This document shows, piece by piece, positions 31,692 to 62,442 of a DNA stretch of 64,000 nucleotides. The position numbers were made by a program, and so were the translations under genes. The notes beneath the pieces were generated by a model, which saw only the letters and a list, made by a program, of their open reading frames with translations, did no database searches and was not told the DNA's origin. The first letter of the stretch is position 1, and every line of letters starts with the position of its first letter. The DNA lies in the IMG/VR virus record IMGVR_UViG_3300019754_000001, positions 1-64,000 of that record. The stretch is one strand, 5' to 3'. This DNA comes from a virus.

Positions 31692-32623
31692 AAATAATAT
31701 GTATATATCACTCTCGAGATCTGGATGGGTGGATGAGTGCTGCAATAGTTAAACATTGGTTTGAAGAAACTGTTAATAGAAAAGGTGAAGAAGATATTCC
31801 TGTAGATAGTTTAGATTTTATAGGTTACGACTATGGTCAACCTATTCCTGATTTAAATGAATACGATAAAGTAATAATGTGTGATGTTAGTTTTCCACCA
31901 GATAAAATGGAAGAAGTATATGATTCAAGTGAATTCATATGGATAGACCACCATAAATCAGCTATAGAAGCCAGTAAATGGATTAATAATACTGTAGACG
32001 GATTAAGAGATACTAATTATGCAGCCTGTGAATTAACATGGAAATATTTCTTTCCTGATGAAGAGATACCTGAAATAGTTAGACTACTTGGTAGATATGA
32101 TTGCTTTGGACATAAAGGTACGGACGAAGAACAGAAAGTATTAGAGTTTCAATATGGTGCAAGACACTATATGAATAATTATAATGATTGTTATACCTGG
32201 CTTACGGGAAATGGTACTGAAGAATCTTTGGTGAATGCTATATTGGATTATGGCATTCCTATTTATCAATACCTTTGTACAGAAGCTAAACAGATTTATA
32301 GCAAAGCTTTTGAGATTTTATTAGTAGAAAACAAAGAAGATGTTACTGTAGGAGAACAAGTGAAAAAGTTCCTTTGTGTAAACCAAGAAAGATTTAATCC
32401 TATAAACTTTGGTATAGATTACCATAAAGAAGGATATGATGGATTTGCTTGTTTCTGGTTAAAAGATGGAAAGTGGATGTGGTCATTATATAATGACAAT
32501 GGGCAAGTAGACTGTTCACTAATAGCTAAACAGTATGGAGGCGGCGGTCATAAAGGAGCTGCTGGTTTTGTATGTGACCGCAATACAATGTTAAATATAA
32601 TTAAACGAATAAGTAAAATATAA
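31688..32623 (+). CDS. DHH/DHHA1 family phosphoesterase
   Basis: YHSRDLDG, MCD, WIDHH, GGGGHKGAAGF. Confidence 0.92.
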   Translation: MKIICIYHSRDLDGWMSAAIVKHWFEETVNRKGEEDIPVDSLDFIGYDYGQPIPDLNEYDKVIMCDVSFPPDKMEEVYDSSEFIWIDHHKSAIEASKWINNTVDGLRDTNYAACELTWKYFFPDEEIPEIVRLLGRYDCFGHKGTDEEQKVLEFQYGARHYMNNYNDCYTWLTGNGTEESLVNAILDYGIPIYQYLCTEAKQIYSKAFEILLVENKEDVTVGEQVKKFLCVNQERFNPINFGIDYHKEGYDGFACFWLKDGKWMWSLYNDNGQVDCSLIAKQYGGGGHKGAAGFVCDRNTMLNIIKRISKI

Positions 32624-34313: not shown

Positions 34314-34361
34314 AAAAAAAGGGGAACCCTACCATTACGGTAGAGTTCCCCTATTTTTTTT
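34314..34361. terminator. Bidirectional terminator at the convergence of the early and late modules
   Basis: A7-GGGGAAC(C)CTACC-loop-GGTAG(A)GTTCCCC-T-tract. Confidence 0.9.
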
Positions 34362-37300
34362 ACAACCACCTCTGGAACATAGCCAATCCAGGGATTGCTC
34401 TAAAAGTTCCTTTAATGAGGTAAGTTTCATCATGTCTAGCATCATCGCTAGTTGCGTATTTAGTAACCACGCTAGGAATATTGACTACATTGTCAATTGT
34501 TCTTAGAAGTGGGGATGGATTCTTAAACATATCCATAAGAGCTTTAGGGTTCATATAGAGTGATACATCATCTTGCAACCTAGATACTGTCTTATATGCT
34601 AATCTGTAACCTTCAGCCTTCTCATCTTCATCATCAAATGCTAAATTAGCTATCAACATAGCAGCACTCATCATAAGAAACCATTGAATCTCCTTCAAGT
34701 TTCTTCTCATGTTGTCTAAATCTGTTTGCATCTCTTTATTATCTGCATTAAACTCTTCTCCAACTGCTAAGTTCTTTAATAGTATTGATTTCATTATCTT
34801 AACACTATTGGCAAAGCCTAAGTCTTTATAGGTTCTATATCTACCCTTCACAGGGTCTCCCATCTGGTCATCTTCTTTATAAGTTTCTATTCTAGTTGCA
34901 ATACCCTCAGCTATCCAAGATTTAAGAGCTAATGTAGCCCTCCCTATTAAATACTTCTTAGCTTGCATAGGGGAGGAGGGGTCATAGTTACCATGAACCC
35001 TCTTAATTAGCTGTATTAGATTGTTTCTCTTCTTTGTAAAGCTATTTGACTTAGTAGCATCATACATAGTATCCCATTGCTCACTGTCTAAAACTTCTTC
35101 TGACATGTTAGCGTGGTTATCATAAGACTCCCACAAGCTAACTTCTGTGCCGTCTACAGTTTGAACTTTAGTGTGCATTAGATTAGCAACCAACACAGCA
35201 GCTTGATTTAAATATTCAGCCCTTTTAGTAAGTTCCATTGGGGCAGCCAAGCCAAGTTTCTTATTATGCTCTTTAATCTTAGAACTCCCAGAGGCATCCT
35301 CCAACAAGTCAAACATAATACCATATTTTGCCATAAGACTTCTAACTTTAGTAGAAACATCATCAACACGTCCTGTAGCAGATCTCTTCATTGAGTGCTT
35401 TAATACACCCATAGCTCTATTAAGTTCCTGCTTAGTGAAATACCTACCAGAAGCAGCTTCTACACTATTTGATATATACCCATATAAAGTATTTGTAAGT
35501 GCTGAGGAAGCATTCCAACCCAAAGATGTAAAAAAAGTTAACTTTAAAGCTTTATCGAATGCCTTGACGGGTGATACAAATCCAGTATCTTGTACCGCAT
35601 CTTTCCTTGCCTGTATACTTAATTTTCTTTCTTCATAATCTTCTTTTTCTACTCTGCCGTGCATCATATCTAGCTCTAATTCATTCTTTTCTTTTTTTAA
35701 TGCTTTTAATGTTTTTCTTGCCTCTTTTGTTAATCCTACCTTGGTTGATAAAATTCCACCCTTATTATGGCCTTTATTGTATAATATATTATCTATTTCA
35801 TACTCTAACTGCCTAACAACATTAAGTTTTTCTCCCTTACCTATCTTATTTCTTATAATGCTATTGGATTTTGATTTTTCTATTTCTATTGATTTTTCTA
35901 CCATCTCCTTTCCTATTGTTAATATATCTTCTACTGCTGATTTTCTTTTATAGTTAATTGCTGAAAAGGAAAACATTTTAAATGCTTTTATAACATCAGA
36001 AGACTTGCTATTAAATTCTCTATCGTAGTCACTTTTTATACTATCTCTAGTTCCTTTAACTACATCTAAAATATCTTTTTGTATTTTTATTGATGCTTCC
36101 GTAGCCCCTTTACTAGTAATGTGGCCATTAAATACAGACTCTTGTCTTATATAGTCTTTTTCAGCCTTACTTAATGCAACTCTTAATTTTCCTACAGTAT
36201 CCTTAGTAAACTTAATAGGAACTGATTTTATAGGCTTACCGTTACTATCTCTCAACTGAGAATCTAAATCATCCTGCTCCTCTGAAAGGCCCCCATAGAC
36301 TCTATCTAATAGAGACTTTCCTGTAATTACACCTGCTATACCCTCATCTCTAACTTTTTCAAGTATGTCTTTATTTACCTGAGGTAAGTGATTATGTTGT
36401 AAAGCGTATGCAACGTGGGGTGGAAAGTAATCCTTAAGGTTGTTAATATTCTCTGTTATAAAATTATAAAGCTTTCCGTATGTTTCTGGATTGTTTTGTA
36501 TAAATTCATAATCTTTATCATACCATTCACTCTTTTGTCCATTTACCTCACTTTTTGGTGCATAGGATAGAAATCTTGTAACACTGGTAAAGTTAGTAGT
36601 TTCTACATTATTACTAGTTAACTCTTCATATAACTGCATTGGGTTATTATAAGATTCCCACTCAGCTATCTTACCCTTGTATTCTGCTATTGTTTTAAAT
36701 CCTACCCTCCCCGCATCGTGGTATCTCTGAAAGGTTTCAACAACTGCCACTTTAGATTTATTATAAGATGTAATCTTCTTTTCCATAGATGATACCAATC
36801 TCTCTCCTACAACTTCACCTAATAGGTCTTTTATCTTAGCAATCTCTTCATTTCTAGCGTCCTCATTATCATTACCAAAAAGGATATTATAGTTAGGTAA
36901 ATAAATATTATCCATAAAGTCTTGATAAGCTTTCTTTTTTTGATTCTTCTTTCTAGCATCCTTAACCCTATTAAGTTGACCTAACTCTACTCTTTGTTTA
37001 GATTTCCAATCATAGTAGCTTTGTGAAAAAACATCTACAAGATTTTTAGTTATATTACCATCAGCATCTTTCTGTAACACCCTCTCGTTAAAATCTTTTC
37101 CATTCTTATCGAATCCAGTCTCCTCTAATATCTTAGTCAATTGAATACCAATAGTTTCCTCAAATTCAGCCATAATGTTTCTATTAGTGTCTTTAAGGAC
37201 TCCTGATAGATAAGATACTAATTTATTATCTACCCTAGAACTATCCATTACAGCAGACCAAAGTAGCCCTACATCTTTAATTTCTGTTAAATCTTTTAAT

Positions 37301-38961
37301 GGTATGGGGTCTCCATTCTTATCTTTAGCCAAGTCACTTATAACAGTTCTAGTTAAATTGAGAAGTGTATTATCTAATTCATTTAGCTTAGCTTCAATTC
37401 GTTCCGCTTCGTCAGTTCGGGGAGAATCTTCAAGCCTATAAATAGGTTTACCTGAAGACTTGTTAATACCCTTGACTTCTAAAACTTGACTGACCATGGA
37501 GCGGAGGGCAGATATCTCCTCACTAGCTTGTTTAACATCTGTTACAGTTACTCTTTTGTTACTCGTTAATACACCCTCTATATTAGATATACTTTTTTCT
37601 GCAATATCTATTACATTTTTAACTAAGGCGCTCTTTTTTAATTTCTCTATATTTTCTTTTATCTCTTCTATTCTAACCATTACGGATTCCTTAGTCTCCG
37701 GATTCTTACTTATTGAATTATAAAGACTGTTCTTTCTAACTTTTAATTCATTTATAGCTTTAGTTAGAATGGCATCAGAAATCGGGTCTATATTACCATC
37801 AGTGTCTTCTCCCCCAAAGTAGCTTGACTCAAATACATCAGTAGATACATGGTCGTCAAAGAACATTATATCATCATCTATTAATTCTTCATTCTCTATT
37901 AAAGACCCTTCATAGTCTTCAACTGTATCAAAGGCCGCATTAACATTATCATTAAGACCATTAAAAAAGTCATCGTCATCAATATCGTCTTGAGACCTAT
38001 TATTAGTCTGTCTATATCTAGCCTCCCCTTCCAATATCTTTCTAAGCCTTGCATTGTTGTTTTCTAGCTTATTTGTGTATAAGTAATCACTAGTTGTATT
38101 TAATATTGCATGCAGTGCTGACCCTTTATTTACACTGATATTTAACAGTCCACTAATATAGTCTAATATACCTTCCCACACTGACTTCTTAGAGTTGAAT
38201 TTAATACCATTTAAAAAATCTCTAAATACACCTTCAGTTAAGGCATAAGATAAAAACTCATCAACACTTTCAATTACTACTGTATCAAGTCCATAACTTT
38301 CCATTAAGTTCCGGTCTTCCAGTAGTCCTTTTACATGTTCGTATACCTCATCTATTCTTTCTTTAAATATCTGCTCTTCCTCAGTTTTAGGGTTTAGTAA
38401 TGCCGCCACTGTAATAACATGTAGCATCTCATGAGTGGCTGTTAATCTAAACTCTTCCTTACTCACTGTCTTATCTAAAAATAATCTTATCTTGTCGTTT
38501 TCTATCACTTCTATAAAACCTGCTGTGCCTTCAGCTCTATCTTCATCTGTGAGTAAAGTAGTATCGTTTGTGTATTCTAAAACTGTTCCAGATTCTTCGA
38601 CTTTAGATACTAGCTTATCGAAGAGGGGGTAGTTTGGGTCTTCTGAATCTACTTCTCCATAGTCTTCAGTTAGGTTACTTAAGGTGAGGGGCTCTTTACC
38701 AATTATTTCGTTTACTATTCTATCGACACCTGCTATTGATTCTATTAGTATTTCTTTATCTAGTGGTATATCCACTCCATCAAACGTATCCCAAACCTTA
38801 TAAGCCATATCCATAGCTACCTTATCATTACCTTCTCTTAGGGCTCTTTCTCCCTCATTTCTAAATTCACTATTAGTTAGCGGTTTACCATCAAATAGTG
38901 TTACAATTTCGTTGAACTCAAAGCGAGCTTCACCGTCATTTATATTTGGACATTTTGCCAT
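34360..38961 (-). CDS. Giant virion cargo protein with zincin metallopeptidase domain
   Basis: 1533 aa; THEMLH...VDEFLSYAL; HGNYD C-terminal region; adjacent to vRNAP. Confidence 0.85.
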   Translation of the reverse strand: MAKCPNINDGEARFEFNEIVTLFDGKPLTNSEFRNEGERALREGNDKVAMDMAYKVWDTFDGVDIPLDKEILIESIAGVDRIVNEIIGKEPLTLSNLTEDYGEVDSEDPNYPLFDKLVSKVEESGTVLEYTNDTTLLTDEDRAEGTAGFIEVIENDKIRLFLDKTVSKEEFRLTATHEMLHVITVAALLNPKTEEEQIFKERIDEVYEHVKGLLEDRNLMESYGLDTVVIESVDEFLSYALTEGVFRDFLNGIKFNSKKSVWEGILDYISGLLNISVNKGSALHAILNTTSDYLYTNKLENNNARLRKILEGEARYRQTNNRSQDDIDDDDFFNGLNDNVNAAFDTVEDYEGSLIENEELIDDDIMFFDDHVSTDVFESSYFGGEDTDGNIDPISDAILTKAINELKVRKNSLYNSISKNPETKESVMVRIEEIKENIEKLKKSALVKNVIDIAEKSISNIEGVLTSNKRVTVTDVKQASEEISALRSMVSQVLEVKGINKSSGKPIYRLEDSPRTDEAERIEAKLNELDNTLLNLTRTVISDLAKDKNGDPIPLKDLTEIKDVGLLWSAVMDSSRVDNKLVSYLSGVLKDTNRNIMAEFEETIGIQLTKILEETGFDKNGKDFNERVLQKDADGNITKNLVDVFSQSYYDWKSKQRVELGQLNRVKDARKKNQKKKAYQDFMDNIYLPNYNILFGNDNEDARNEEIAKIKDLLGEVVGERLVSSMEKKITSYNKSKVAVVETFQRYHDAGRVGFKTIAEYKGKIAEWESYNNPMQLYEELTSNNVETTNFTSVTRFLSYAPKSEVNGQKSEWYDKDYEFIQNNPETYGKLYNFITENINNLKDYFPPHVAYALQHNHLPQVNKDILEKVRDEGIAGVITGKSLLDRVYGGLSEEQDDLDSQLRDSNGKPIKSVPIKFTKDTVGKLRVALSKAEKDYIRQESVFNGHITSKGATEASIKIQKDILDVVKGTRDSIKSDYDREFNSKSSDVIKAFKMFSFSAINYKRKSAVEDILTIGKEMVEKSIEIEKSKSNSIIRNKIGKGEKLNVVRQLEYEIDNILYNKGHNKGGILSTKVGLTKEARKTLKALKKEKNELELDMMHGRVEKEDYEERKLSIQARKDAVQDTGFVSPVKAFDKALKLTFFTSLGWNASSALTNTLYGYISNSVEAASGRYFTKQELNRAMGVLKHSMKRSATGRVDDVSTKVRSLMAKYGIMFDLLEDASGSSKIKEHNKKLGLAAPMELTKRAEYLNQAAVLVANLMHTKVQTVDGTEVSLWESYDNHANMSEEVLDSEQWDTMYDATKSNSFTKKRNNLIQLIKRVHGNYDPSSPMQAKKYLIGRATLALKSWIAEGIATRIETYKEDDQMGDPVKGRYRTYKDLGFANSVKIMKSILLKNLAVGEEFNADNKEMQTDLDNMRRNLKEIQWFLMMSAAMLIANLAFDDEDEKAEGYRLAYKTVSRLQDDVSLYMNPKALMDMFKNPSPLLRTIDNVVNIPSVVTKYATSDDARHDETYLIKGTFRAIPGLAMFQRWL

Positions 38962-38991
38962 TTGTATATAGTATTAAAATATTTTATTATT

Positions 38992-39042
38992 AGCCATAGA
39001 AGAAGACAATATTTCTACTATTGTAGTAATCCCGGCGGAATT
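38992..39042 (+). repeat. Bipartite element copy D (intergenic)
   Basis: AGCCATAGAAGAAGACA (17/17 with copy A)-N18-TAATCCCGGCGGAA. Confidence 0.88.
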
Positions 39043-39096
39043 AGTGTTGTACAGGCTACCAACCCATAGGAAAGGCAACCTGTACACTTAACTAAT
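39041..39096 (-). other. Minus-strand RNA hairpin right after the vRNAP stop
   Basis: GTACAGGTTGCC/GGTAGCCTGTAC pairs with G-U only on the - strand; no U-tract. Confidence 0.6.
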
Positions 39097-42000
39097 CTAG
39101 CATTTCTTATGCTCGTCCCTTATGACATCTCTAACTTGTACTAAGCTAGGATTGACATTTGAGGTCATTGAACTTGTATTAACTCTAGGCTTATACTCAC
39201 TAACTTTCCCATTAGCAAATGGAAACTCCTTATAACCTTTACTTAATACCCACCTAATTAAATGCTCCTCGCTAAACTGACCATTAACATATTTATTAGA
39301 GTAGGCTTGTACACTACTATCTAATAGAATAGAAGCTCCAGCCTCAACAGCTACACTTAACATCTCTACAGTTCTTTTAAACTTAGCTTCAGATCTACCG
39401 TGTGCCCCAACACCACCAGATATACTTGCAAAGACCTTATCATCTTTAGTATATGTTTCTGAATTTACAGGTATATTATTATTACGTGCATCAAAGGCAT
39501 AAGTAAGAGTACTAGAACTTTTAGGATTATAAGCCCTACTGTTAAAGTCTTTACCAAAGTTAGCAAATACATAAGCTGTAGCTCTAGCCGCTTTATATTG
39601 ATCTTTTCCAGTCTTATCCATCGATAGTATGAACTTAGTTGTTCCATTCTCCTTTTCACTATCAATACCATTATTGATTAAATAACTTAAAACAGTAGCA
39701 TGAGATGGCTGTCCTAACTCTTTCCAGTATAGCAACTTCTTACCTTTAAGCTTTCCAGAGTTAATTAGATCAACTATCCATTCCTTTCTAGCCATTAGTT
39801 GTGGATATTCTTTATCAAACTTATCAGTAGTTAACCAATCATGGTAGTTTTGAACAGACTCTGCTATAGTTCCTGCAGGTATAATAGCACTAGTAGAGCT
39901 CATGTGAGAAGAAGGGTTACCGAAGTGCTTCTCTCCACCCTTTCTTAGGGTATAAACCATACCATTCTCTTTAGCATATTTTTCCATTCCTTGATAATCT
40001 AAACCCTTATCTGTCATGAAAGAAGGTATACCATTCATACCCCTAATTACAACAGTTTCATTAGCAGTAGTCTTACCCATCTTACTAATAGCATGTAATT
40101 TTTCATGCTTTGGAGGACTATCAAATAGTGTTTGTTGTACAGCAAGTTTTTCTTCTAAACCTCTTATCTTTTCTGCAACTTCCATATACTCTCCCATTAT
40201 AATGTTTCTTGATTGTTTATCTATCATTGTGTTGGAAGCAAATACATACTCATTAGTAGTCAAGTCAAAAATGCTATCTGTAGGCATTACTGCAAATTCC
40301 TTTCCAAGCGTAGTTACTTTTCTGTGTGGTTCTTTATTAAGTAATACCTCTACAGCTACTCGCTTAGTTATTGCAGGGTTTGTTATTCTTCTCAAATCAT
40401 TACCTGGCCTTATTTCATATACTGAGTTATTGTAGCCAGTTCCATATGTTTTTCCATTTATAGTCACAGTATCATATACTACATTCTTTGTTTGTTTATC
40501 TTTTTCTATTTCATTAAAACCTGAAGTAGCTATAAAGAAGTTACCAAAAGCTTCATATAATGCAGTACCTTTTTTAAGTTTAGCTCCTATCATGTTCTCA
40601 AACAGGTTAGTCATATACTTAAGTATTCTCTCCCCAAAGGTTGATTCTTTATATGGAGTCTCTTTATGGAAATTTATAAACTCTCTATTTGTTAAAGCTA
40701 CCATAAATTCATTAAGGTTGGTTAGTGGCTCATACCTTCCAACATCTTTTAAATCAGACTCCTTCTTTTCCTTTATATTTGCTTTTATCTTATTAATTTC
40801 TCTTTTGTGGATATCAGCTAAGTGCGCTCTGACAGCTTCAATATTACCCATTGCAATCCTTATATCTCTAAATTCGTCACCCTTAAGCTGTCCGGATATA
40901 TATCTATCTACAAGTTGAGATGTTTGAGTGTGAGCTATTTCATGAAGTAATACCTCTTCCAGTTCTGCTTTGAATATATTAGGTGCTAGATTTCTAGACC
41001 CCATCTTATTAACATTGAGGCTTATTGAACCTCCAACTTGCTGACCCCTATGCTGAAGGGTTGGATCTTTTACATATTTAATACCGTTAGGCATTAACCA
41101 TTTAAGGTCTTTTAAAATCCTTGCTGCAGGTATTAGATGTGGTGTAGTTATATTATCCAATGCACTCATAAAAGAACTTACGCCCTCCGTGCCATTAGAA
41201 AAGTAGCCAGTTACAGGGTCTCCTTGAAGTGCTACTGTTTTATCAGCTCTGTAGTTTGCAACCTTCTCTTTTACATTTGGGTTATTGTAATCAAATACAG
41301 ACTTGCCCTCATACTCTTCACCTAGATTTTCTGACATCTTCTTATGACCTTTTGTATTCATTTCTAGATATATAAAACCGTCCTCCATTGGAACTCTCTC
41401 ATATAAACTATCTTTATTCTTTCCTCTGACATGTGCATATAGGGGAGGATTTGAGTTCTTAGAGCTAAACACTACTTTATCTGTATATAAAACTTTATTA
41501 GTATCAGGGTCATAGTTATTTTTATTTTCTATTCCATCAATCTTATTAAGCTCTGGAGTACTCTTTGGATAATGTTCTACATACTCTTTAAATACTTCCA
41601 CGGGGTTTATATTATTAAGTAGTGTAGAATTTAATCCAAGGCCATGACCTGATTCAATTAATATCTTTAAAGGTCTAATCATCTTAATGGAGCGTGGGCT
41701 AAACTTAGCACCCTCCATTAAACTGTACCTGACTAAATCAAGAGCTAAAGAACGTTGCTCAGCATTACCTCTATAGAGTTCCATCCAGGATGCTATCAGC
41801 ATTGTCTGTGCGTTCTGAGTTAATGCAAAGGTATTTATCTCTACGAAGGAGGGGGCATCCAGTGTCTTTCCTTGTGAAGGGATTAAGTTACTTATGAACA
41901 AAGAACCTATTGGATTATTAGTTCTTTTGTATCTATTAATCCTATTAGCTAATGAGTTACTTCCATACAACATATCAACCATCAACTGTTTCTTATCTAT

Positions 42001-45000: not shown

Positions 45001-47844
45001 TACAACCTCACCTGTTCCTATCATATTATTTATAACATAATCAGCAGCTATTGCAGTTAAAGCATAGGCATCTGGATTAGTTATATTTCTTTTTTCTAGA
45101 GTTTCAGTATCCAAACCCATTCTTTTTAAGTACTCTTTATTTAATGTCTTTGTTATTGGATATGATTTAAAATTTTCATTCAATATATCAAACACATGCT
45201 TAACTTCTTGCTGTATATCCTTATGTACCTCATCTAGCATAAGTTTTACAGTATCGTTATTAAATATTATACCATTAGAACTTAGTATTGAAGTAGCTGG
45301 GTCTGTACTATCTAAAAGTTTATTAAGTGAAGGAAATAAATAAAACCTGTCACCACCCTTAAGAAGTGCTATATCCATTCCTTTTCTACTGTCTTCTTTT
45401 CGTTTATTTATAACTCTAGTAATTCGTTTAGCTTCTCCTCTTATAAGATCTTCAAGAGCATTGTTTACTTCTATTCTTGTTATAGTATCACCTATAAGAC
45501 CCTCCTCATACTTATATTTAATATCTTTTCCATTGGCATCTTTTAACTTAGTATTATTATCCTTGTCTGCAAATATACCTCTAGGGCCAGTTATTCCATC
45601 AGTTTTACCTACCCCTGTTATATTGATACGTGGCCACTTAAATATTATATTTCTACTCTTATCTGAAAACGTTAACGGCATTAGGTGCATGAATTTATCA
45701 TTACCGTTATTGGCCATTAAAGATAATCTCATAACGAGTTTCTCTAGTGGGGATGCTTCTTTTCTTGTTATGTTAACATTATTAGAAGTAGATATTGCAT
45801 CTAAAACCCCCATAACAATATCCCCCTCTTTTAAAGCACCTCTCTTTAATAGTTTAACAACTCTAGAAGTTGAAGTAAAGTCTCCATCTTCCATATCTTT
45901 CATAAATTTACTATCTTTAGTTGTTAACTTCTTTACTAACTGTGTGGCAAAACTAGGTAATCCGTATTTAGCTACTTGGTTATCTGAAGAGTTTAGAAAG
46001 GTCTGGTCTACGTGTTCTGCAGATTCTTCATAAAGTGTCTTTAATACTATTTTTACCATCCTATCCTCTAAAGGGTTAGAGTTGTTACCAACAAATGAAG
46101 AGGTTGTGTCAATATCTGTTATGTTTGATAGTGATGTTATAAAGTTAAACCCTCCCTCATTATCTGTAGATATAAATGTTATGGGATTCATACCTGACTT
46201 TAAGAATTTAGCAGCCTTATCACTTCCATTTTGTATATACTTTTGTGGGTTTCTAATAAGGTCTTCATATTGAGAGGAGGTAAGCTTAATACCGTATTGA
46301 TCTAATATATCCATAATCTCAACAGCGTTATCAAGCATATGCTGTACACCAGCATTCCTATCAGCTTTACTAAAATCAATACCAAACTTCCTTAAAGCCT
46401 CAACAGCTAAAACACCAACTCTATTAGATAGCTCAATCATCTTACTTTCATCTAGAACAAAGTTGTTATTTGATATCTTTAATATCCCAGCCTTGCCTTC
46501 AGACTCTTCATGCTTTTCTATTTGATGCTCTCTAGCTAGGTTTAAGGAACTTCGGGTGGCGGAAGTGGAATCAGTATTTATAATCCTATACTGTCGTTCT
46601 ACTGTATTTGGAGTTTCAAAATCTCCATCATTTAGTTCTCTAGAGTATTCTTTAACTGTAACCATGTTATGATTTTGTAGATTAGTAGCTACATAGAATA
46701 AGTTTCTAAACCTATTATACTCTGGTGTAGTTGGGTCTTTTAGCTTTGCAGCTATAGACATTAAGACTGGGTCTTGTGTCTTCTCTAACATTTCAACCCT
46801 CTGACTTATCGTACCGTATGAATCAGCTAGGGCATTAGTTATTTTACTAAATACTACCTTGTGGCTATAAGTATCAATGAACCCTAAAATGTTTGCTTTG
46901 AGTTGGGGAGTGTATTTCTTACCATCTTGAACATAAGTTACTTTAGGTATATTCATAAGATAGGTTTTAAATACAAACCCTACAGTATCTGATACTGGGA
47001 TAGCCATTTTCTTAGCATCATCCCAAACAGCACCAAAGACCTCTTCACCAAACATATCTGAATCATCTTGTGTTTCAGCATTCTCTGTTACAGTCTCAGT
47101 TGTTAGTTTAGTATCATCTTCTAAGTTATTATCTTTAGTAGTTTCGTCCTTATCTTTATTTATCTTTTCTTCCTTATACCCTTCAGATATTAATCTACCT
47201 TTAAGTAGCTTTTGAAAAGACTTAAAAGCATCAGGCTCAAGTAGCTTATTAACGGAGGATAGAAAAAGCTCTCCCTTGGTGCGTTGTTCTTTTGTTATTG
47301 TTTTATTTGCCAGTCCTTCTTTATATTCTTGTTGTGCTGTCCTTAACATTTTTTCCATTTCAACAGCAAGTGATTTAGTACTAATAGCATCATTAAATAA
47401 GCTCTTTAGTACAATACTTTCTCCCCACCCCAAGATAGATTCTACTTCTAAAGTATTAAATCCTTCTATTAGCGTATCAGGGTCTTCTATATATTCATCA
47501 GCTTCTAATCCATAACCTTCTACTCTTTTAATGACTTCCTCATATACAGGCTCTCCATTTTCATCTACTCTTCCGTTATAGTTTTCAGGATTAAATTCCC
47601 AATCTCCATAGGTATCTTTATACTTATCTGTTCTTACAGCTATTGATACTTCTACAGCTCTTTTTATATTTTTTGTTTTATCTAGAACAGTCTTAAATAA
47701 ATAAGATGCTTCACCATTAGATGCTTTTTCAAATGGAATCTCATCTTCTTTTAAGTTATACTTCTTAAAAAGACTTAAAGCAGTATCCGAAGATACTACT
47801 TTAGTCAATGAGTTAAATACTTTTGTTCCTTTAGGACACTTCAT
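39097..47844 (-). CDS. Virion-packaged single-subunit two-barrel RNA polymerase (crAss/phi14:2 gp66-like) with C-terminal accessory domains
   Basis: 2915 aa; RIPNQGFSSM and GSDFDVD catalytic loop (~43333-43347); LLHEIAH zincin; DUF4326-like FGNP...YHDWL...LKGKKL...HATVL. Confidence 0.92.
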   Translation of the reverse strand: MKCPKGTKVFNSLTKVVSSDTALSLFKKYNLKEDEIPFEKASNGEASYLFKTVLDKTKNIKRAVEVSIAVRTDKYKDTYGDWEFNPENYNGRVDENGEPVYEEVIKRVEGYGLEADEYIEDPDTLIEGFNTLEVESILGWGESIVLKSLFNDAISTKSLAVEMEKMLRTAQQEYKEGLANKTITKEQRTKGELFLSSVNKLLEPDAFKSFQKLLKGRLISEGYKEEKINKDKDETTKDNNLEDDTKLTTETVTENAETQDDSDMFGEEVFGAVWDDAKKMAIPVSDTVGFVFKTYLMNIPKVTYVQDGKKYTPQLKANILGFIDTYSHKVVFSKITNALADSYGTISQRVEMLEKTQDPVLMSIAAKLKDPTTPEYNRFRNLFYVATNLQNHNMVTVKEYSRELNDGDFETPNTVERQYRIINTDSTSATRSSLNLAREHQIEKHEESEGKAGILKISNNNFVLDESKMIELSNRVGVLAVEALRKFGIDFSKADRNAGVQHMLDNAVEIMDILDQYGIKLTSSQYEDLIRNPQKYIQNGSDKAAKFLKSGMNPITFISTDNEGGFNFITSLSNITDIDTTSSFVGNNSNPLEDRMVKIVLKTLYEESAEHVDQTFLNSSDNQVAKYGLPSFATQLVKKLTTKDSKFMKDMEDGDFTSTSRVVKLLKRGALKEGDIVMGVLDAISTSNNVNITRKEASPLEKLVMRLSLMANNGNDKFMHLMPLTFSDKSRNIIFKWPRINITGVGKTDGITGPRGIFADKDNNTKLKDANGKDIKYKYEEGLIGDTITRIEVNNALEDLIRGEAKRITRVINKRKEDSRKGMDIALLKGGDRFYLFPSLNKLLDSTDPATSILSSNGIIFNNDTVKLMLDEVHKDIQQEVKHVFDILNENFKSYPITKTLNKEYLKRMGLDTETLEKRNITNPDAYALTAIAADYVINNMIGTGEVVQLLSDPAQYFKRDEFGTWTTYLKRLGSLIGTGMDPSTEVAEMVNGKRIINNYENIAYFVLNDKYTSRMYNKYKKSLSPEIAKGYKNVNSTDAQELVTLKSYIVFMAQRGKIKEEVYDSINKKIMESYKTNKPLLLNSGEDAEIARLTQMDIIPQKPLYTSNNFNKETSSNDTMIVKSSFFPLIPQYTKDLEIDMIREKMEREERKYLIDDNNEEKTGNLTTVHLAFESAVKAGSRDKWDVFNYENDHEGNSRAIGLNKDKIDLMEPTIVKREGLKTQQEEGNHEDYKTISVSQMNQLITMGISEMAGFDLFIDDHVIKDGKGIREMRDKIKVRMMEEGLGKLEHSFGIKNGVVTNQAKFRDAFKEILVNEGISDNELQSLKFKHGAFAWPLDMSASRNKIVQKINSAISKKILRPELRGRSFVQGAAFGIKGKMNVSKLSDNENNVIFTSEFDTELKAGDIILNKKGKVIGIQKMQVILPWMFNEDINNFIGSGGKLDMSKIDKELLSLIGARIPNQGFSSMSNIEIVGFLPPQMKSLIILPDEITAQMGSDFDVDHLYTYMYNYKNVEDADGNKTLKIISEENVTAKEESKLLQNQYIRLHEAVLSHPDITKKMLTTLDLPDFQNFAKVAKAKEEEQYRDGTKRFVPLGIEYSEKEYNNAQAGKIGVAIEANALVFLAMAENKGLYPIDKDGSKLFLEVESEGEVLTLSDIDLGTSGGGVRSNADSLMMLLSEAVDNANNGNLAYLGYDAVNSGVYNLLIQMVDKGETQSKNKALSAETVALIMTQPAIQEITEELKTTSNKLGKRNSSEDMAIIQSVLKSYEENRVEGPLTTEELKSQSNSAQYKVASIFAALYNPAKTIGIANSVLKIETKGVGKDISSIVQKVKIYSEVINGKSDIVGLDNLVLNGDGELTEVGYGVYNSLNTARAIWGTNIGGFPMSVGATPKFNTLLDMVLDNNSSLSYSDIPFISKQLHESMLSHLLLKKTDESSLFKDNGEEIDKKQLMVDMLYGSNSLANRINRYKRTNNPIGSLFISNLIPSQGKTLDAPSFVEINTFALTQNAQTMLIASWMELYRGNAEQRSLALDLVRYSLMEGAKFSPRSIKMIRPLKILIESGHGLGLNSTLLNNINPVEVFKEYVEHYPKSTPELNKIDGIENKNNYDPDTNKVLYTDKVVFSSKNSNPPLYAHVRGKNKDSLYERVPMEDGFIYLEMNTKGHKKMSENLGEEYEGKSVFDYNNPNVKEKVANYRADKTVALQGDPVTGYFSNGTEGVSSFMSALDNITTPHLIPAARILKDLKWLMPNGIKYVKDPTLQHRGQQVGGSISLNVNKMGSRNLAPNIFKAELEEVLLHEIAHTQTSQLVDRYISGQLKGDEFRDIRIAMGNIEAVRAHLADIHKREINKIKANIKEKKESDLKDVGRYEPLTNLNEFMVALTNREFINFHKETPYKESTFGERILKYMTNLFENMIGAKLKKGTALYEAFGNFFIATSGFNEIEKDKQTKNVVYDTVTINGKTYGTGYNNSVYEIRPGNDLRRITNPAITKRVAVEVLLNKEPHRKVTTLGKEFAVMPTDSIFDLTTNEYVFASNTMIDKQSRNIIMGEYMEVAEKIRGLEEKLAVQQTLFDSPPKHEKLHAISKMGKTTANETVVIRGMNGIPSFMTDKGLDYQGMEKYAKENGMVYTLRKGGEKHFGNPSSHMSSTSAIIPAGTIAESVQNYHDWLTTDKFDKEYPQLMARKEWIVDLINSGKLKGKKLLYWKELGQPSHATVLSYLINNGIDSEKENGTTKFILSMDKTGKDQYKAARATAYVFANFGKDFNSRAYNPKSSSTLTYAFDARNNNIPVNSETYTKDDKVFASISGGVGAHGRSEAKFKRTVEMLSVAVEAGASILLDSSVQAYSNKYVNGQFSEEHLIRWVLSKGYKEFPFANGKVSEYKPRVNTSSMTSNVNPSLVQVRDVIRDEHKKC

Positions 47845-47847
47845 ATG

Positions 47848-50800
47848 TTAACATTCTGTTTTATTCTTATTTGGTGTGTTATTGAATCCCTTAACATCTA
47901 TAACAGTAGTTGCAGAAGAAAAGGATAAATTAAAAGCATTTGGAACAGTAGTACTCTTAGGAGTGTTATCTATATTAACCAACTCAAAAGATGTAACAGA
48001 GTTGTTAAAGTAAGATACTTCTACATGTCCACCAGCTCCATCAGAGTGTACATCCTCTGGAAGATTATCATTATCAAATTCTTTATCTGTTTTGTACATC
48101 TTTGACTTTATTGTCTTGCTTTCTAAATCTGTTTTTATATTCTTAAATAAAAAGTCTTTATAAGTTCCTGAAGCATATTGATACCTTATTCCAGAAGCAG
48201 TAGTAGTATGCCCTGTGGGTATCCTACTTTCTCCTCTCTTAGTCCCTAGTTTATTTAAACCTAGTAACTTATCACTAGTGTTTATAGGAACTTTTCCAAG
48301 AGCTTCTTTGAATGCTTGTTTTTCTTCTTCTGTTGAATCTTCAGTGAGACTCATACCAGTACCTACTTTAGCCTGATTAAACAAGTGAATACCAGTAACA
48401 TTTCCGTCACCATCCTTATCCATGTATACTATTGAGGGTCTTCCTGATATATTGTCTGCAGCTATAATAGCATCTGATTTCTTTTTCTTATCTACAACTA
48501 TTAAATTAGATATAGTGTTTATGTGATTTTTAGCATTATTACCTTTTAAAATCTCATCCATTCCAGCCATTACTGCATCTAATGCTTTACCATCATTTAC
48601 TTCAGCTATACTATTTTTAATTATGAACCTTCTAACCTTCTCCCCATTTGGAGCTTTTAAGACTATGGCAGTCCTTCCCTTGAAGTCACTAAGGAATTGT
48701 GAGTCATCTCCAGTCTCATGTATCTCTCCATTTGAACCCATAATGCCTTTATCTGTGACTAAGGCTATGTCGAAAAACTTTGGTGTGGATTGTTCGTCTT
48801 TGAATACATCACTTAGTGGTTTCATTTCACCACTTTGACTAGTATTTAAATGGCCTGTACCTTTATCAACTACTTCTAACATTTTATTGATATATGTTCC
48901 ATCCTCTTCTGTTTCAGTATTAGCTAGTATTGTTCTTAGCTCTCTAACTCTCCCTTGCTGTTCTGCTAAATTATTCTCTTTATTGTCACCAACTGTTAAA
49001 TAATTAACTGCATCCAGTGTGGGTACATATCCAATGAGTTCTCTAACTTTCACTCCGTCAACATAGACTACCTTATATATAGCTATTGGCATATTATTAG
49101 ATATCCAAGCTTCTCCCTCCGTTCCTTTCTCTTTAGCTTTTTTCCTTGAGTAATTCTCCCAAGAGTCCTCTATAGTTTTTCTTTGCAACTCTCCCTCTTT
49201 ATTGCTCCAATCAAATAGTTTTCCTTTATATCCTACATCAGCAACAATCTCTAAAGTTTCTCCAACTTTTATTAAATGTTTACTTTCAGTTGGAACACCA
49301 TCCTTGCTGACGTCTATTAATGTAAGGTTATTAACATCCCAAACATGACTAGCTCTAGCGATTGCCATACCATCCATTCTTAAAACTGCTGGTTTACTTA
49401 ATTCACTTTTCTTTGGAGTAGTTACTTGATTAGCTAATTCTAAACTATCTCCTTCAAGTACTTCAGTATCCACATTAACTACTTCTAGCTCGTTACCTTT
49501 AGGCCTCAATTCATTTGCAGAAAAATCAACATCTGCTTTATTAGCTTCTGCTAAAGCATTAAAATAACTATTAACATGCTTAATTAGTCTATTTAGAGTT
49601 TCTAATTGGTTATCTTCGCTTTGTATTAAGCTATTAAATCCGGAAGCCTTTTCATATAATTCAACTATCTTATCAATAGCGTCTTTATGCCCCCTAACTA
49701 AATCTGATGAAGTAAATCCATTATCTTTTATAAATTTACCAATGCTATTAAACATATCTACTGAATCTAATATGTTAGAAGACTCTACAGTAGAAGACGA
49801 GTAAAGCTTTCCTCCATCAATATCTTTTAGAGTGGTTGATATACTATTATTAGTATCTGTCCTATTATCTATAAAATCAGTATAGGACATAGCATTAACA
49901 CCATATTTGCCAAGCTTCTCTTTTAAAAGGGTAGTAATCATATTGAACGGTACATCATTACCAGCTTTAGAGTCTGATAAAGCTTTAACTAAAGTCATTT
50001 GATCCATTACTGAGAGTATGTCAGCTAGTATGCCCTTTTGATCTTCAACTGGCATGCCATCCTTAAAGTCTAGTTGCTCTGAATCCTTTATAGAACTAGC
50101 TAAGTGCACAAAGTACTTAAATAGGTCTGAGTTTCTATCAATAGAATTAGGTATTATTTTACCATCCTTAAACTCACTTATCCACAGTAGTAAGTTACCA
50201 ACAGCTCCTTTAACCTGAACACTATTTCCATCAGCATCCTTTATAGTAGCTGTAAAGACACTCCCTCGAGTATCCATAGGATTAGCTCTAAATAAGTGTG
50301 TTATTATCTTATGTCTATTATTGTCTCCAGTAAGTTCTTGCAGTGCATCATCGTCAGATAAGTAAGTAGAACCGTCCCCATCATCTTGAAATCCATACAA
50401 CTGTATTATATCATCCAATGCCATTACAAACTTATCGTTTTCAATTACTCCATCTTTTTCTAATTTAGTCTTTATATCAACATCAGTAAGACCTACTTCA
50501 AATATCTTTGAAATACTTGTCTGTGATGCGTCCTTGCTTGCTATAAACTTTTCTAACCTAAGCTTATTAAATGACTCAGTGCCTTTATGTTTACCATCCT
50601 TATTTAAGTCTAAAGGCTTTGGGGGTGTAGGGATAACCTTTTTATCAATATTATCTTTCTTTTCTATTACTTTCTTCTTATTCTTAGCATCCTTTTCCTC
50701 ATTAGCTTTCTTTTGCTTTTCTACCTTACGTTTCTTTAAGTTAGCTAAATTCGTAAGTTCTGCTAATTGAGACCTAGCCATTTTTAATTTAGCATCTTTA

Positions 50801-53800
50801 AACTCTTTTCTCTCTAGTTCTGCCCTTTTCTTTAGAGATGCTTTTAGGGTTGAGGAGCCTTGATTAGAGGTAAAATACGCATACTGATTAAATGCATAAT
50901 CTTCAGCTACTTGTAATTGCTTTTGATATATTTTATCAGATGCTTTTTGTATTACATTATTTTTACCATTACTTATATTTCTTAAACTTCTTATATTTTC
51001 TTTTAACTCTCTTAATATCTCTGGTGGAAATTTATTATCAAACTCTATCTTATCAACATCATCTTCAATTTCATCAATTAAAGACTGTTCTATATCAAGT
51101 CTCTTTCGTTTTAAAACTTCCTCCAAGTACTCTATTGATTTCTCTGTACCTACCTTTTCTAACTTACTATGTTCTTTTTTCTCATATCCTGCCAATACCT
51201 TCTTTTGGTTGTCTAACTCTTTCTTAACATTGTCAATTGTAGTGTGTACATTTTTCTCACGTTGGCTTCCAAACCATATTGCTTTATTTATCTTTTCTTT
51301 TAAGTTACTTGGTATCTTTTTATTACTCTCTCTATTGTTTTTAAGACTGCTGTGAAAACTCAAGAGTTTATCATCAATCACTTGATTATACTCTCTATTA
51401 ACATCAACACCGTCAACTATCTTAGGTTCTTTCTTTTGTTTATATAACTCATCTATGTATTGTTGTTGAGTTTCTTCCGAAGCACTTAACAAAGTTTTTA
51501 AAGACTCAATAGCGTTATACATAACCCCCTTACTTTCTTTGGGTCTATTTTCCTTAGCCGCTTTATTAGAAAATTCAGAATCCATTCCTTCCAGCCCCTC
51601 TTTATATACTTCATCATATAATACTGAAGTAACATAATCGGTGGCTTCTTTAGTTAGGGGGTCACTATTAGTATCGTCATTCTCTATTTGCTTTTGCATC
51701 TTTTTATTTAGCTTGGCAAATCTTTTATTGTTTATCCATATATCAAGTATCTTCTCAGGATATTGGTATACTTCATCACTTGAACTATCAAATTTACTCT
51801 TTAATACTTCATACTGTTCTCTTGTAGCCTTAAGTTCACTTATAAACTCGTTATTGACTTCTTTAAAATCATCAAGATTTCCATCCGAATCCTTAGCTTG
51901 AGCATATCCTGCAGCCATTGCACTACTCTTCCCAGAATACTTAACAATGTTATCCTCTATTATTTTAGCTTGTTCCTCCATAGAGATAAGCATTTCACTT
52001 TGCTTCTCGCTCAATCCTCCGGCGGCTTCACCCTCCCCCTTTAACTTGTCAATGCTTTTAAGCACCTCATCAAGATCTTTTTTGTATTCTTCTCCAAGGT
52101 CGTTAGTGTTACTCATCTGATTAGCCTCCCCCAGTGTTTGCTCTATATTCTCACTAAAGCCTTGAGTGACGCTATTAAACTTTGTCATATCAAACAAGTC
52201 TTGTTTAACCTCATCTAAAGACCTACCATCTTTAGTCATTCCACCATTCTGAGCAGCTTCTGCCATGTCCTGGTAGCTTTTCTTTACAAAGTCTATATCT
52301 TTTATTATAGTGTTTCTATATTTTTCATAGTCTTCTTCAGCTTTTGTTCTAAGTCCCTTAGCTGTTCCAAATTTCCATTCCTTGACAGGCTTCTTTGTTA
52401 CAGTGCCATCTGCATTTTTAACTTCTTGATATATTATCCCATTCTCATCATACTTGTTTGTTCTATTTGGAGTTCCTCTCTCCCTCCCGGCCTTAAGAGC
52501 ACCTCCCATAAAGGCTCCCCAGAAGGCAGCTTCTAATCCTTCTTTAGAAGTAGAACCTTTAAACCAGGCGTCTAAGTATGTTAGGTTATCAATATCTGGA
52601 GAGTTACCTGTGAGTTTATTTACTTCCTTATCTACTTGTGCACTTCCAACCTCTGCAGCTCCCTCCAACATAGCTTCCTCAAAAGCTTCTGATAGCATTT
52701 CTTTAGGGTAGCTTCTAATACCTACCTCTTTATTTACTGCTTTCTTTAATTCTTTTCTTATTACATCATCAGATACTCCTGAAGCTTTTAACCTTTTAAC
52801 ATACTGCTCTGTTGTCTCTGTTGCTCCTTTAATTCCTTTATTCTTAAGCTTAAGTAGATTCTTTTGCTTTTTTAGTATGGATGAAGTTGTCATCCTTGTA
52901 GCAGTTAAAGGAACTAGGTTTGTAACCATTCCGAGGGCAGTTCCTAACATTACAGATGTATGGGCAGCCTGTGTAGCTATTTCTAATTTATCCTCCTCTG
53001 ATATACCTTCAACACCTGCCATCTTCTCAATAGCTGCATCATATACTTGAGCCCCTGTTCTACCAGCCTCTGCAGAACTTAAAACTGCTGCATTGGCTAC
53101 TTCTGATAACTTAGGTACAAACTTTATTGCATTATATCCTTTTATTGTTTTGCTTGATAATAGTGCGGCCTTATTAGCCATTTTAACTGATAGCTCTAGT
53201 CCTTTAGAAGTTCCAGCAGCTACCTTAGCAGCCCTGGATAGAGCCTTACCTGTAACAGATGCACCTCTAGCCATAGCACCTCCAACGCCTCCAGTAACAG
53301 CTTCAACAGCCATAAAAGCACCAACAGATGCTACTCCATCTGATATGTTATTAACCCAATAAGCATAGTCAGAAAAGTCAGACGTTCCAGGACTTTGTTG
53401 ATATACATCTCTTTTAAGACCGTTAATCATCTCTCCAAAAGCAGTTATATCATTAGTGTAAGGATTATCCACAGTATATCCAAATATACCTTCCTTTACT
53501 ATAGCTCCTAGTGTTCCAACATCTGTAACTATCTCTCCTACAAATCCAGGTAATGTATTAGTAATACCTCTCCATGTTTGCTCTGTCCAGTGCTGTTCTT
53601 GGGCTCTAAGACTGCCTAAATTATCTAAATCAGTATTCTTTACTAGGTCTAAATCTACATAGCTTTTAAACTCTTCTAAATTAACCTTTTCAGGGTCTAT
53701 ACTATTTATACTTATTCCACTAGAGGGTCTTAATTTAATTGTATCTTGTAGCTCTTCTATCTCAATCTCTCTAGCTGTTTTATTGTTTGGATTGCTTTTA

Positions 53801-53868
53801 GGTGCTTTCCTTATTCCTACTTTCTTATCAAATAGTGAATTAGTTTGTACTTTATCGTCTTCTTCCAT
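47848..53868 (-). CDS. Giant virion cargo/ejection protein
   Basis: 2006 aa; Gly/Ala-rich hydrophobic N-terminal region, long coiled coils; gene order typical of crAss-like phages. Confidence 0.8.
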   Translation of the reverse strand: MEEDDKVQTNSLFDKKVGIRKAPKSNPNNKTAREIEIEELQDTIKLRPSSGISINSIDPEKVNLEEFKSYVDLDLVKNTDLDNLGSLRAQEQHWTEQTWRGITNTLPGFVGEIVTDVGTLGAIVKEGIFGYTVDNPYTNDITAFGEMINGLKRDVYQQSPGTSDFSDYAYWVNNISDGVASVGAFMAVEAVTGGVGGAMARGASVTGKALSRAAKVAAGTSKGLELSVKMANKAALLSSKTIKGYNAIKFVPKLSEVANAAVLSSAEAGRTGAQVYDAAIEKMAGVEGISEEDKLEIATQAAHTSVMLGTALGMVTNLVPLTATRMTTSSILKKQKNLLKLKNKGIKGATETTEQYVKRLKASGVSDDVIRKELKKAVNKEVGIRSYPKEMLSEAFEEAMLEGAAEVGSAQVDKEVNKLTGNSPDIDNLTYLDAWFKGSTSKEGLEAAFWGAFMGGALKAGRERGTPNRTNKYDENGIIYQEVKNADGTVTKKPVKEWKFGTAKGLRTKAEEDYEKYRNTIIKDIDFVKKSYQDMAEAAQNGGMTKDGRSLDEVKQDLFDMTKFNSVTQGFSENIEQTLGEANQMSNTNDLGEEYKKDLDEVLKSIDKLKGEGEAAGGLSEKQSEMLISMEEQAKIIEDNIVKYSGKSSAMAAGYAQAKDSDGNLDDFKEVNNEFISELKATREQYEVLKSKFDSSSDEVYQYPEKILDIWINNKRFAKLNKKMQKQIENDDTNSDPLTKEATDYVTSVLYDEVYKEGLEGMDSEFSNKAAKENRPKESKGVMYNAIESLKTLLSASEETQQQYIDELYKQKKEPKIVDGVDVNREYNQVIDDKLLSFHSSLKNNRESNKKIPSNLKEKINKAIWFGSQREKNVHTTIDNVKKELDNQKKVLAGYEKKEHSKLEKVGTEKSIEYLEEVLKRKRLDIEQSLIDEIEDDVDKIEFDNKFPPEILRELKENIRSLRNISNGKNNVIQKASDKIYQKQLQVAEDYAFNQYAYFTSNQGSSTLKASLKKRAELERKEFKDAKLKMARSQLAELTNLANLKKRKVEKQKKANEEKDAKNKKKVIEKKDNIDKKVIPTPPKPLDLNKDGKHKGTESFNKLRLEKFIASKDASQTSISKIFEVGLTDVDIKTKLEKDGVIENDKFVMALDDIIQLYGFQDDGDGSTYLSDDDALQELTGDNNRHKIITHLFRANPMDTRGSVFTATIKDADGNSVQVKGAVGNLLLWISEFKDGKIIPNSIDRNSDLFKYFVHLASSIKDSEQLDFKDGMPVEDQKGILADILSVMDQMTLVKALSDSKAGNDVPFNMITTLLKEKLGKYGVNAMSYTDFIDNRTDTNNSISTTLKDIDGGKLYSSSTVESSNILDSVDMFNSIGKFIKDNGFTSSDLVRGHKDAIDKIVELYEKASGFNSLIQSEDNQLETLNRLIKHVNSYFNALAEANKADVDFSANELRPKGNELEVVNVDTEVLEGDSLELANQVTTPKKSELSKPAVLRMDGMAIARASHVWDVNNLTLIDVSKDGVPTESKHLIKVGETLEIVADVGYKGKLFDWSNKEGELQRKTIEDSWENYSRKKAKEKGTEGEAWISNNMPIAIYKVVYVDGVKVRELIGYVPTLDAVNYLTVGDNKENNLAEQQGRVRELRTILANTETEEDGTYINKMLEVVDKGTGHLNTSQSGEMKPLSDVFKDEQSTPKFFDIALVTDKGIMGSNGEIHETGDDSQFLSDFKGRTAIVLKAPNGEKVRRFIIKNSIAEVNDGKALDAVMAGMDEILKGNNAKNHINTISNLIVVDKKKKSDAIIAADNISGRPSIVYMDKDGDGNVTGIHLFNQAKVGTGMSLTEDSTEEEKQAFKEALGKVPINTSDKLLGLNKLGTKRGESRIPTGHTTTASGIRYQYASGTYKDFLFKNIKTDLESKTIKSKMYKTDKEFDNDNLPEDVHSDGAGGHVEVSYFNNSVTSFELVNIDNTPKSTTVPNAFNLSFSSATTVIDVKGFNNTPNKNKTEC
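51978..52025 (+). repeat. Bipartite element copy E (inside CDS)
   Basis: CCATAGAGATA-N20-GCTCAATCCTCCGGCG; both boxes (11 and 16 nt) identical to copy B. Confidence 0.88.
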
Positions 53869-62407: not shown

Positions 62408-62442
62408 AGAGGAAAGTATGTCGCGCGACAACTGCTTAATCT
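62404..62442 (+). repeat. Bipartite element copy F (overlaps the muzzle start codon)
   Basis: CCATAGAGGAAAGTA-N13-CTGCTTAATCT, ungapped against copy C; lacks the terminal GGCG. Confidence 0.7.

Follow-up and report, generated by a model that had tools for sequence, protein, structure and literature searches.

Cysteines at facing termini accompany gene fission among the giant cargo proteins of crAss-like phages

INTRODUCTION

For the way in which virions of crassviruses, the most abundant phages of the human gut, send some 0.7 MDa of protein through a narrow tail, Bayfield et al. (2023) offer a hypothetical model only; the polymerase with which infection begins is part of this cargo. A 64,000-nucleotide (nt) stretch of viral DNA (positions 1 to 64,000 of IMG/VR record IMGVR_UViG_3300019754_000001; this whole stretch is called the window here) puts a sharper question: why do three consecutive giant proteins, which we call A, B, and C, keep cysteines only at the termini that face one another? 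The window comes from a complete virus genome of 93.9 kb that has terminal repeats, and the source virus, judged by sequence, is a divergent crAss-like phage. We found no paper in the literature that states a rule for terminal cysteines in split and fused cargo proteins of Crassvirales.

Cysteine is confined to the inner termini of A, B, and C

All three genes lie on the minus strand. Segment A (2006 aa, 222.7 kDa; positions 47848 to 53868), the first member of the chain, has a sole cysteine, which is its last residue (Cys2006, a TGT codon at 47851 to 47853; tail ...TEC). Segment B (2915 aa, 327.8 kDa; 39097 to 47844), a virion-type RNA polymerase (RNAP), has two, namely, Cys3 (TGT, 47836 to 47838; head MKCP) and Cys2915, again the C-terminal residue (TGC, 39100 to 39102; tail ...HKKC). 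Segment C (1533 aa, 174.1 kDa; 34360 to 38961), the last member, has only Cys4 (TGT, 38950 to 38952), which lies in the sequence MAKCPN at the start of a conserved N-terminal head module; its C terminus has no cysteine. The initial annotation had listed four cysteines in 6454 residues, one at each inner terminus, and our count places them exactly there.

The other 50 open reading frames (ORFs) of the window contain 103 cysteines in 11,900 aa (0.87%). At this background, ~56 cysteines would be expected in A, B, and C together versus the 4 observed (probability of 4 or fewer, 2e-19), and none of the 6454 residues is an internal cysteine. The probability that four cysteines would land one each in the four inner terminal segments of 4 residues is 3.5e-12. 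Calls of N-terminal cysteines depend on the choice of start codon, taken here as the first ATG after an in-frame stop; they are supported by these first-ATG starts together with conserved N-terminal peptides. Nine homologues of the 2915-aa protein keep Cys3 of B without exception, and it forms an invariant column in the B-homologue alignment (A1); Cys4 of C is one of only 6 invariant columns among 32 homologues of the 1533-aa protein.

A profile built from B and 8 homologues matches the RNAP of phage phi14:2 (PDB 6VR4, chain 6vr4_A; E = 1.3e-118, profile positions 236 to 2141), and the sequence of B used alone gave no PDB match. B has both the two-barrel RNAP homology and the catalytic DFDxD motif of the phi14:2 gp66/6VR4 family (DFDVD, residues 1500 to 1504), and residues G1498, S1499, D1500, F1501, D1502, and D1504 are invariant in alignment A1. 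The closest record in the phage collection shares at most ~23% identity with B over one third of its length, and a megablast search of B against that collection found no match. The initial annotation had also seen in B a DUF4326-like domain stripped of its usual cysteines; we could not recover such a domain, either in B at E values up to 10 or in the 93.9-kb genome at E values up to 1.

Terminal cysteines are present at split junctions and absent from fused ones

Alignment A1 was used to find 80 related IMG/VR loci, which were taken with 10-kb flanks; a search with the single B protein found none, so that the alignment was needed. ORFs were called, and the A, B, and C segments were assigned by phmmer and jackhmmer. 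L005, L002, and a further four loci contain weak homologues of segment A, and word-indexed homologue searches returned two relatives for C and none for A. The 80 loci fall into four architectures, in which the segments are all separate (A|B|C), joined in pairs (AB|C or A|BC), or encoded by a single ABC ORF.

Where C is separate, the B-bearing ORF has a cysteine within its last 25 residues in 42/42 cases, and the separate C has one within its first 12 residues, likewise in 42/42. Where C is fused to B, the C-terminal cysteine is found in 0/25 B-bearing ORFs (versus 42/42 when separate; Fisher test, 6e-19). At the other junction, the N-terminal cysteine of B and the C-terminal cysteine of the upstream ORF are both present in 33 cases and both missing in 38, with 1 mismatch. 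The outer C terminus of the chain has a cysteine in 0/59. Complete single ORFs for ABC (4,730 to 5,920 aa) contain no cysteine, except for one internal residue in L004, and three longer fused ORFs that run off the end of their loci (6,425 to 6,546 aa) contain none. Over the 78 nonidentical loci, 150 chain proteins contain 224 cysteines in 414,972 residues; 148 of these lie at termini, and internal ones occur at a frequency of 0.018%.

These counts bear on the proposal of the initial annotation that each C-terminal cysteine works with an N-terminal KCP sequence of the next protein. The pairing itself is strongly supported, as the C-terminal cysteine and the N-terminal cysteine of the next gene occur together when the segments are split and are absent when they are fused. 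The motif is not KCP throughout, with the N-terminal cysteine at position 3 to 6 and proline following it in only 21/72 proteins.

Homologues from other sources show the same distribution. Among 19 database homologues of B (25 to 36% identity, 2,500 to 4,900 aa), nearly all have just 1 or 2 cysteines, located at position 3 to 5 and at the last or penultimate residue, with the longer forms lacking the N-terminal one. The rule is obeyed by crAss001, phi14:2, FpV4, DAC17, a Carjivirus near p-crAssphage, cr6_1, cr118_1, and cr50_1. As an independent set, the core of C was used in a full HMMER search of 1.84 billion cluster representatives, which yielded 1,088 relatives, and the best 149 of these were counted. 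A C-terminal cysteine was found in 0/149 of these, an N-terminal cysteine in 52/62 proteins of the size of C and 23/29 of the size of BC, and 35/45 giants had no cysteine at all.

The genes for AB and C of cr6_1 (L087, 10956 to 28846) hold 57 and 29 in-frame stops, respectively, under genetic code 11, and their terminal cysteine pattern holds nonetheless. Recoded lineages of this kind will show up in protein databases as Cys-free fragments.

Junctions arose repeatedly and at nonhomologous positions

An IQ-TREE phylogeny of the polymerase core requires no fewer than 10 changes of the B|C state and no fewer than 13 of the A|B state. Restricting the analysis to supported branches left 6 independent contrasts for B|C and 7 for A|B. 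In each of the 6 B|C contrasts, the cysteine moves with the state, and in the A|B contrasts it never moves the opposite way (sign tests, p ~0.03 each); FastTree gave the same picture.

The break points are nonhomologous and differ by hundreds of residues. C of the window starts ~350 residues earlier than the usual C, in a stretch that belongs to B in most relatives, and this is also what sets its B|C junction apart in a comparison with the cultured crassviruses; residues 142 to 419 align with the C-terminal part of B in L003. In the coordinates of the window's C, the N termini of separate C proteins are spread over ~670 residues, and in several lineages A itself is divided at other positions. 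The head module that starts at the cysteine (often as CPN) occurs 50 times at N termini, and its one clear internal copy (L070/L071) is without the cysteine. When split junctions were aligned to fused relatives by pairwise MAFFT, identity was only 20 to 28%, and the junctions lay in variable linkers, often opposite gaps; in L060, the one usable case, the conserved tail motif runs on without the cysteine.

The cysteines themselves lie almost at the ends of the proteins. The N-terminal one is at position 3 in 40 proteins, position 4 in 21, position 5 in 8, position 6 in 2, and position 8 in 1, and the C-terminal one is followed by 0 (22 proteins), 1 (26), 2 (14), or 3 (6) residues and rarely by more. 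The C-terminal cysteine is flanked by lysine, and such Lys-rich flanks would favor a reactive thiolate.

Gene arrangement varies without disturbing this pattern. In crAss001 and DAC17, the A gene is on the strand opposite to B and C, and the pattern is unchanged; in L034, L046, L059, and L072, a distance of 0.5 to 2.3 kb separates the partners; and among the related loci the spacers between genes fall in all three frames. Because partners may lie on opposite strands, far apart, or in any frame, the cysteine signal is placed at the level of the protein. Annotators can therefore use terminal cysteines to recognize the members of a chain and their order, even where the genes are dispersed or divided between the two strands.

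In the window, A and B share a reading frame, with TAA and one codon (CAT) preceding the ATG of B (47845 to 47850, minus strand), and B and C are likewise in frame, 135 nt apart with three stops between them. This in-frame layout looks incidental, since related loci use all frames. Read-through of stop codons at the junctions was ruled out by the spacers in all frames, the lack of a suppressor tRNA in the window, and the three stops of the B-C spacer.

Relation to cultured crassviruses and other phages with ejected proteins

The same three segments with the same terminal cysteines are found in crAss001 (gp47-gp50-gp49) and phi14:2 (GenBank gp078-gp077-gp076, of which gp077 is the RNAP of PDB 6VR4). 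In crAss001, a phage of Bacteroides intestinalis, gp47 (262.5 kDa) has only Cys2339 of 2341 residues, gp50 (276.9 kDa) has Cys5, Cys1334, and Cys2404 of 2412, and gp49 (154.5 kDa) has Cys5 only; together the three amount to ~694 kDa. In phi14:2, a phage of Cellulophaga baltica, the only cysteine of the first protein is its last residue, the second protein has Cys3 and a penultimate cysteine, and the third has Cys3. Mass spectrometry (MS) has shown the cargo proteins of both phages to be present in virions (PMC10172136; GenBank notes), and it is for these two only that packaging and ejection of a crAss-like virion RNAP are known. The structural atlas of crAss001 assigns gp47, gp49, and gp50 to the cargo zone of the capsid, proposes partial unfolding and N-to-C exit for gp45, and never mentions the terminal cysteines of gp47, gp49, and gp50; it does report disulfide bonds, both for gp57 and for the tail (PMC10172136). 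The preprint on phi14:2 notes fused polyproteins and proposes that they are cleaved, and cysteine is not mentioned.

Giant virion RNAPs with companions nearly free of cysteine are also found in Schitoviridae (N4 gp50, gp51, and gp52; DEV gp71 to gp73), which in this respect resemble the fully fused crAss forms. N4 gp50 (3500 aa), gp51, and gp52 have 0 cysteines each, and the published explanation for the suppression of cysteine in these ejection proteins is their passage through the periplasm (PMC11445570). The polymerase of Schitoviridae belongs to a family unrelated to that of the window and is a single chain, with neither junctions nor terminal cysteine pairs.

The closest precedent comes from cyanopodophage A4 (Anabaena phage A-4L), a member of Saffermanviridae with a 42-kb genome and thus of another family than the virus of the window. 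In its cryo-electron microscopy (cryo-EM) structure, Cys1715 of gp27 is disulfide bonded to Cys5 of gp26 in the packed pre-ejectosome (PMC12002296, PNAS 2025, PDB 9K3A). These are the sole cysteines of both proteins in the genome record (gp27, 1717 aa; gp26, 1114 aa), so that here, too, consecutive genes for large internal or ejection proteins have one cysteine near the end of the upstream product and one near the start of the downstream product. A4 differs in having one link versus two in the window and in having no RNA polymerase, and its link was reported as a structural detail and not as a rule. A phmmer search of A4 gp25 to gp29 gave no hit against the window's five proteins (E up to 10) or all ORFs of the loci (E up to 0.01), and the C-family profile does not hit 9K3A. 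The long AlphaFold2 (AF2) model of C residues 340 to 1533, searched whole with Foldseek and VIA-align, gave generic helical matches, with 9K3A not among the matches listed. No relation in sequence or fold was found by these searches, and the likeness between A4 and the crassviruses may be convergent.

A cysteine-tethered cargo chain and its alternatives

The reading that we consider probable is that A, B, and C, which correspond to pieces of a Cys-free polyprotein (4,700 to >6,500 residues) encoded as one in many relatives, are tethered end to end by pairs of terminal cysteines, most likely disulfides. The comparative evidence strongly supports the pairing of each C-terminal cysteine with the next N-terminal one and suggests that, at each break in the polyprotein, a cysteine pair takes the place of the peptide bond. 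When the gene is split, a cysteine 0 to 3 residues from the upstream end would pair with one at position 3 to 6 of the downstream protein, probably through an interchain disulfide, and covalent continuity would be restored as A-S-S-B-S-S-C, ~725 kDa in the window. The remaining sequence is kept free of cysteine, as in other ejected phage proteins, and the terminal cysteines are therefore the only thiols available. In crAss-like virions, the bond would form once the termini are docked; the tether would then ensure that the proteins are packaged together and pass through the tail in order, from N to C, and it would be undone by the reductants of the host cytoplasm. The short overhangs would keep the joint barely thicker than a linear polypeptide. 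A disulfide is the most likely chemistry because there is one thiol per side, because A4 provides an example, and because crAss virions can hold disulfides.

This turns the published guess around, in that the data point to pieces being joined rather than to fused polyproteins being cut. It also offers a concrete test of the delivery question, through the matched cysteines at split cargo genes, and by analogy links the crassviruses to cyanophage A4, the source of the sole solved structure of such a bond.

Several observations weigh against a disulfide-tethered chain. Because these phages are assembled in a reducing cytoplasm and many of them inhabit the anoxic gut, a disulfide would have to form after packaging or lysis. 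The disulfides of crAss001 were seen in aerobically purified particles (PMC10172136), and the reduced and nonreduced MS of Bayfield et al. reported nothing on these termini, although their tryptic peptides would be very short, at 3 to 7 residues. Direct observation of such a bond comes from A4 and from no crAss-like phage, and the case made here is comparative, with an analogy to a phage that has no detectable relation in sequence or fold. The similar heads at both junctions (KCP at both in the window) raise the question of mispairing, in which the tail of A would meet the head of C in place of that of B. There are also departures from the rule itself. Ten of the 62 C-sized database proteins have no cysteine and could be pieces of giants that are fused or recoded. 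B of L016 has an N-terminal cysteine and its upstream A has no terminal one; B of L064 has no C-terminal cysteine, and no C was found in that locus; and the A and B-bearing ORFs of L028 overlap and both are without cysteine. The overlap in L028 could reflect a frameshift, either programmed or an assembly error, in a functionally fused giant.

The overlap in L028 measures 38 nt, between A (3817 to 9858) and BC (9821 to 18442). ORFs of 400 to 525 aa that have similar N termini and a close cysteine pair (CxxC to Cx5C) form a family whose members are inserted between chain genes or follow them (L016, 6318 to 7538; L034, 15983 to 17176; L064, 16902 to 18479), and in L016 the insertion coincides with the rule-breaking junction. 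No Pfam family was found for small ORFs inserted between chain genes or for extra Cys-tipped proteins.

The strongest competitor, which we regard as unlikely but worth serious attention, keeps the tether and changes its purpose: it would staple a folded multiprotein core within the capsid, ensure 1:1:1 copackaging, and stabilize the core, and the proteins would exit separately after the core falls apart. The A4 disulfide lies in a folded pentameric ring in which the C-terminal helix of gp27 inserts into a cleft of gp26 (PMC12002296), and the cargo proteins of crAss001 are predicted to be folded and helical (PMC10172136). The core of C in the window likewise models as a compact, all-alpha fold (AF2, residues 340 to 1533; predicted local distance difference test [pLDDT], 84.3; predicted template modeling score [pTM], 0.85); its first 51 residues are disordered in the model, and most relatives break in that stretch. 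Heads and tails are conserved beyond the cysteine, which fits a docking interface. Such a staple, however, does not need cysteines that lie 0 to 3 residues from the C terminus and 2 to 5 from the N terminus in almost all lineages, whereas a thin joint does, and the fully fused forms make it clear that a continuous chain can function and may even be preferred. It is this extremely terminal placement that leads us to favor the ordered threading and reductive release proposed in the initial annotation over the stapling of a folded core.

A second alternative, which seems improbable, concerns the chemistry: the facing cysteines would be joined by a metal ion in a thiolate-metal-thiolate clasp, possibly shared between copies, a bridge that the initial annotation had also allowed for. 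A clasp could be made while the virion assembles in the reducing cytoplasm, which would solve the problem of linkage ahead of lysis and under anoxic conditions, and the co-variation data do not discriminate between types of bond. Each side offers one cysteine only, though, with no conserved histidine or second cysteine nearby; two ligands are too few for a usual zinc site, and the sole solved example of this geometry, in A4, is a disulfide.

It is more doubtful still, and in our estimate very improbable, that each terminal cysteine acts alone, e.g., on a third virion component, in a homodimer, or as a processing signal, with the facing arrangement being incidental. Lone terminal cysteines do occur in a few virion-block proteins outside the trio: FpV4 gp30 (598 aa, in the position of cargo protein 1; L083, 8975 to 10771) has a single cysteine at residue 5, and the only cysteine of a 479-aa protein in L017 (129 to 1568) is its last residue. 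Against this, the cysteines on the two sides of a junction are gained and lost together and vanish on fusion (33 both, 38 neither, and 1 mismatch; 42/42 versus 0/25), and the outer ends never carry one (0/59 and 0/149). A Cys-based cleavage site is excluded by the fused forms, which are without cysteine. Finally, chance or shared ancestry, by which a Cys-poor family merely happened to keep its terminal cysteines, has a negligible probability, for although cysteine suppression is a known background trait of ejected proteins such as the Cys-free N4 gp50, gp51, and gp52 (PMC11445570), this explanation is refuted by the split/fused co-variation, the independent set, and the tree contrasts, with the low probability of the pattern in the window (P ~3.5e-12), the repeated independent state changes with matching cysteines, and the nonhomologous break points all speaking against it.

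The tethered-chain reading can be taken a step further, to a proposal that we put forward tentatively and would not ourselves bet on: covalent continuity of the cargo may be a functional requirement, such that the RNA polymerase and its two partners exit the capsid N to C as one thread of ~725 kDa (up to 6,500 residues), which is either encoded whole or stitched together by terminal disulfides that are then cut in the host cytoplasm. If this were true, gene fission would be tolerated only where the break acquires both a tail and a head module tipped with cysteine, and the joints would constitute a release switch gated by redox state and, for ejected phage proteins in general, a design rule convergent with A4.

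Genomic context of the cargo genes

The genes upstream of A support the placement of the three giants within a Crassvirales tail/cargo block. The 1402-aa muzzle protein (58223 to 62431, minus strand; Pfam crAss_MUZ, E = 2.9e-93) marks the start of the block. It is followed on the same strand by cargo protein 1 (619 aa; 56279 to 58138; Pfam crAss_CARG1, E = 1.6e-08) and by a 726-aa protein (53868 to 56048), which takes the position of cargo protein 2, as crAss001 gp46 does, and lies outside the Cys-linked chain. The initial annotation had described the 726- and 619-aa proteins as Cys-free and the muzzle protein as having ordinary internal cysteines, and the counts agree (Cys291, Cys469, and Cys734 in the muzzle protein). 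A ring-1 protein (CrAss_Ring_1, E = 6.1e-20) is also encoded on the minus strand in the block, so that the order on this strand is ring-1, muzzle, cargo 1, 726-aa protein, A, B, and C. The muzzle, cargo-1, and ring-1 Pfam families are thus adjacent to one another on one strand and adjoin the cargo genes as in crassviruses, and the order from the muzzle to C matches crAss001 gp44 to gp47 plus gp50 and gp49. Given this gene context, the three giants are probably packed and injected by the source phage. Neither A, B, and C nor the 726-aa protein belongs to a Pfam or PHROG family.

Two hairpins were noted in the block. The B-C spacer (135 nt; 38962 to 39096, minus strand), which contains the three stops, forms a strong hairpin with a 13-bp main stem (minimum free energy, -36.7 kcal/mol; z = -3.85) that could be an internal terminator, an attenuator, or a processing site in the cargo operon. 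A strong terminator-like hairpin with a 15-bp stem and a T run (34320 to 34352, minus strand) lies directly 3' of the C gene, at the end of the block.

Further motifs were seen in B and C. An HExxH motif (HEMLH) is located at residues 177 to 181 of C (38419 to 38433, minus strand), in the N-terminal ~350-residue region that in most relatives forms the C-terminal part of B, and this region may be the zincin-like protease domain mentioned for orthologues of phi14:2 gp65. B contains two further HExxH motifs, at residues 2301 and 2580. The B-homologue profile also matches PDB 9KWF chain B, described as a "putative deoxyribonuclease" (E = 2.2e-07, positions 2546 to 2884, corresponding to ~39190 to 40210 on the minus strand). 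Some B homologues have helicase Pfam domains, which B of the window does not show.

No thioredoxin-like gene was found among the ten block neighbors scanned; the Carjivirus record annotates two thioredoxins beside its block. The tRNA genes of the window (407 to 2101, plus strand) are Arg-CCT, Arg-TCT, and two Met-CAT, with no suppressor among them. Convergent with the block, two plus-strand neighbors encode a DHH/DHHA1 phosphoesterase-like protein with 10 cysteines (31688 to 32623) and a protein with a weak match to an Rv2179c-like exoribonuclease (30586 to 31479).

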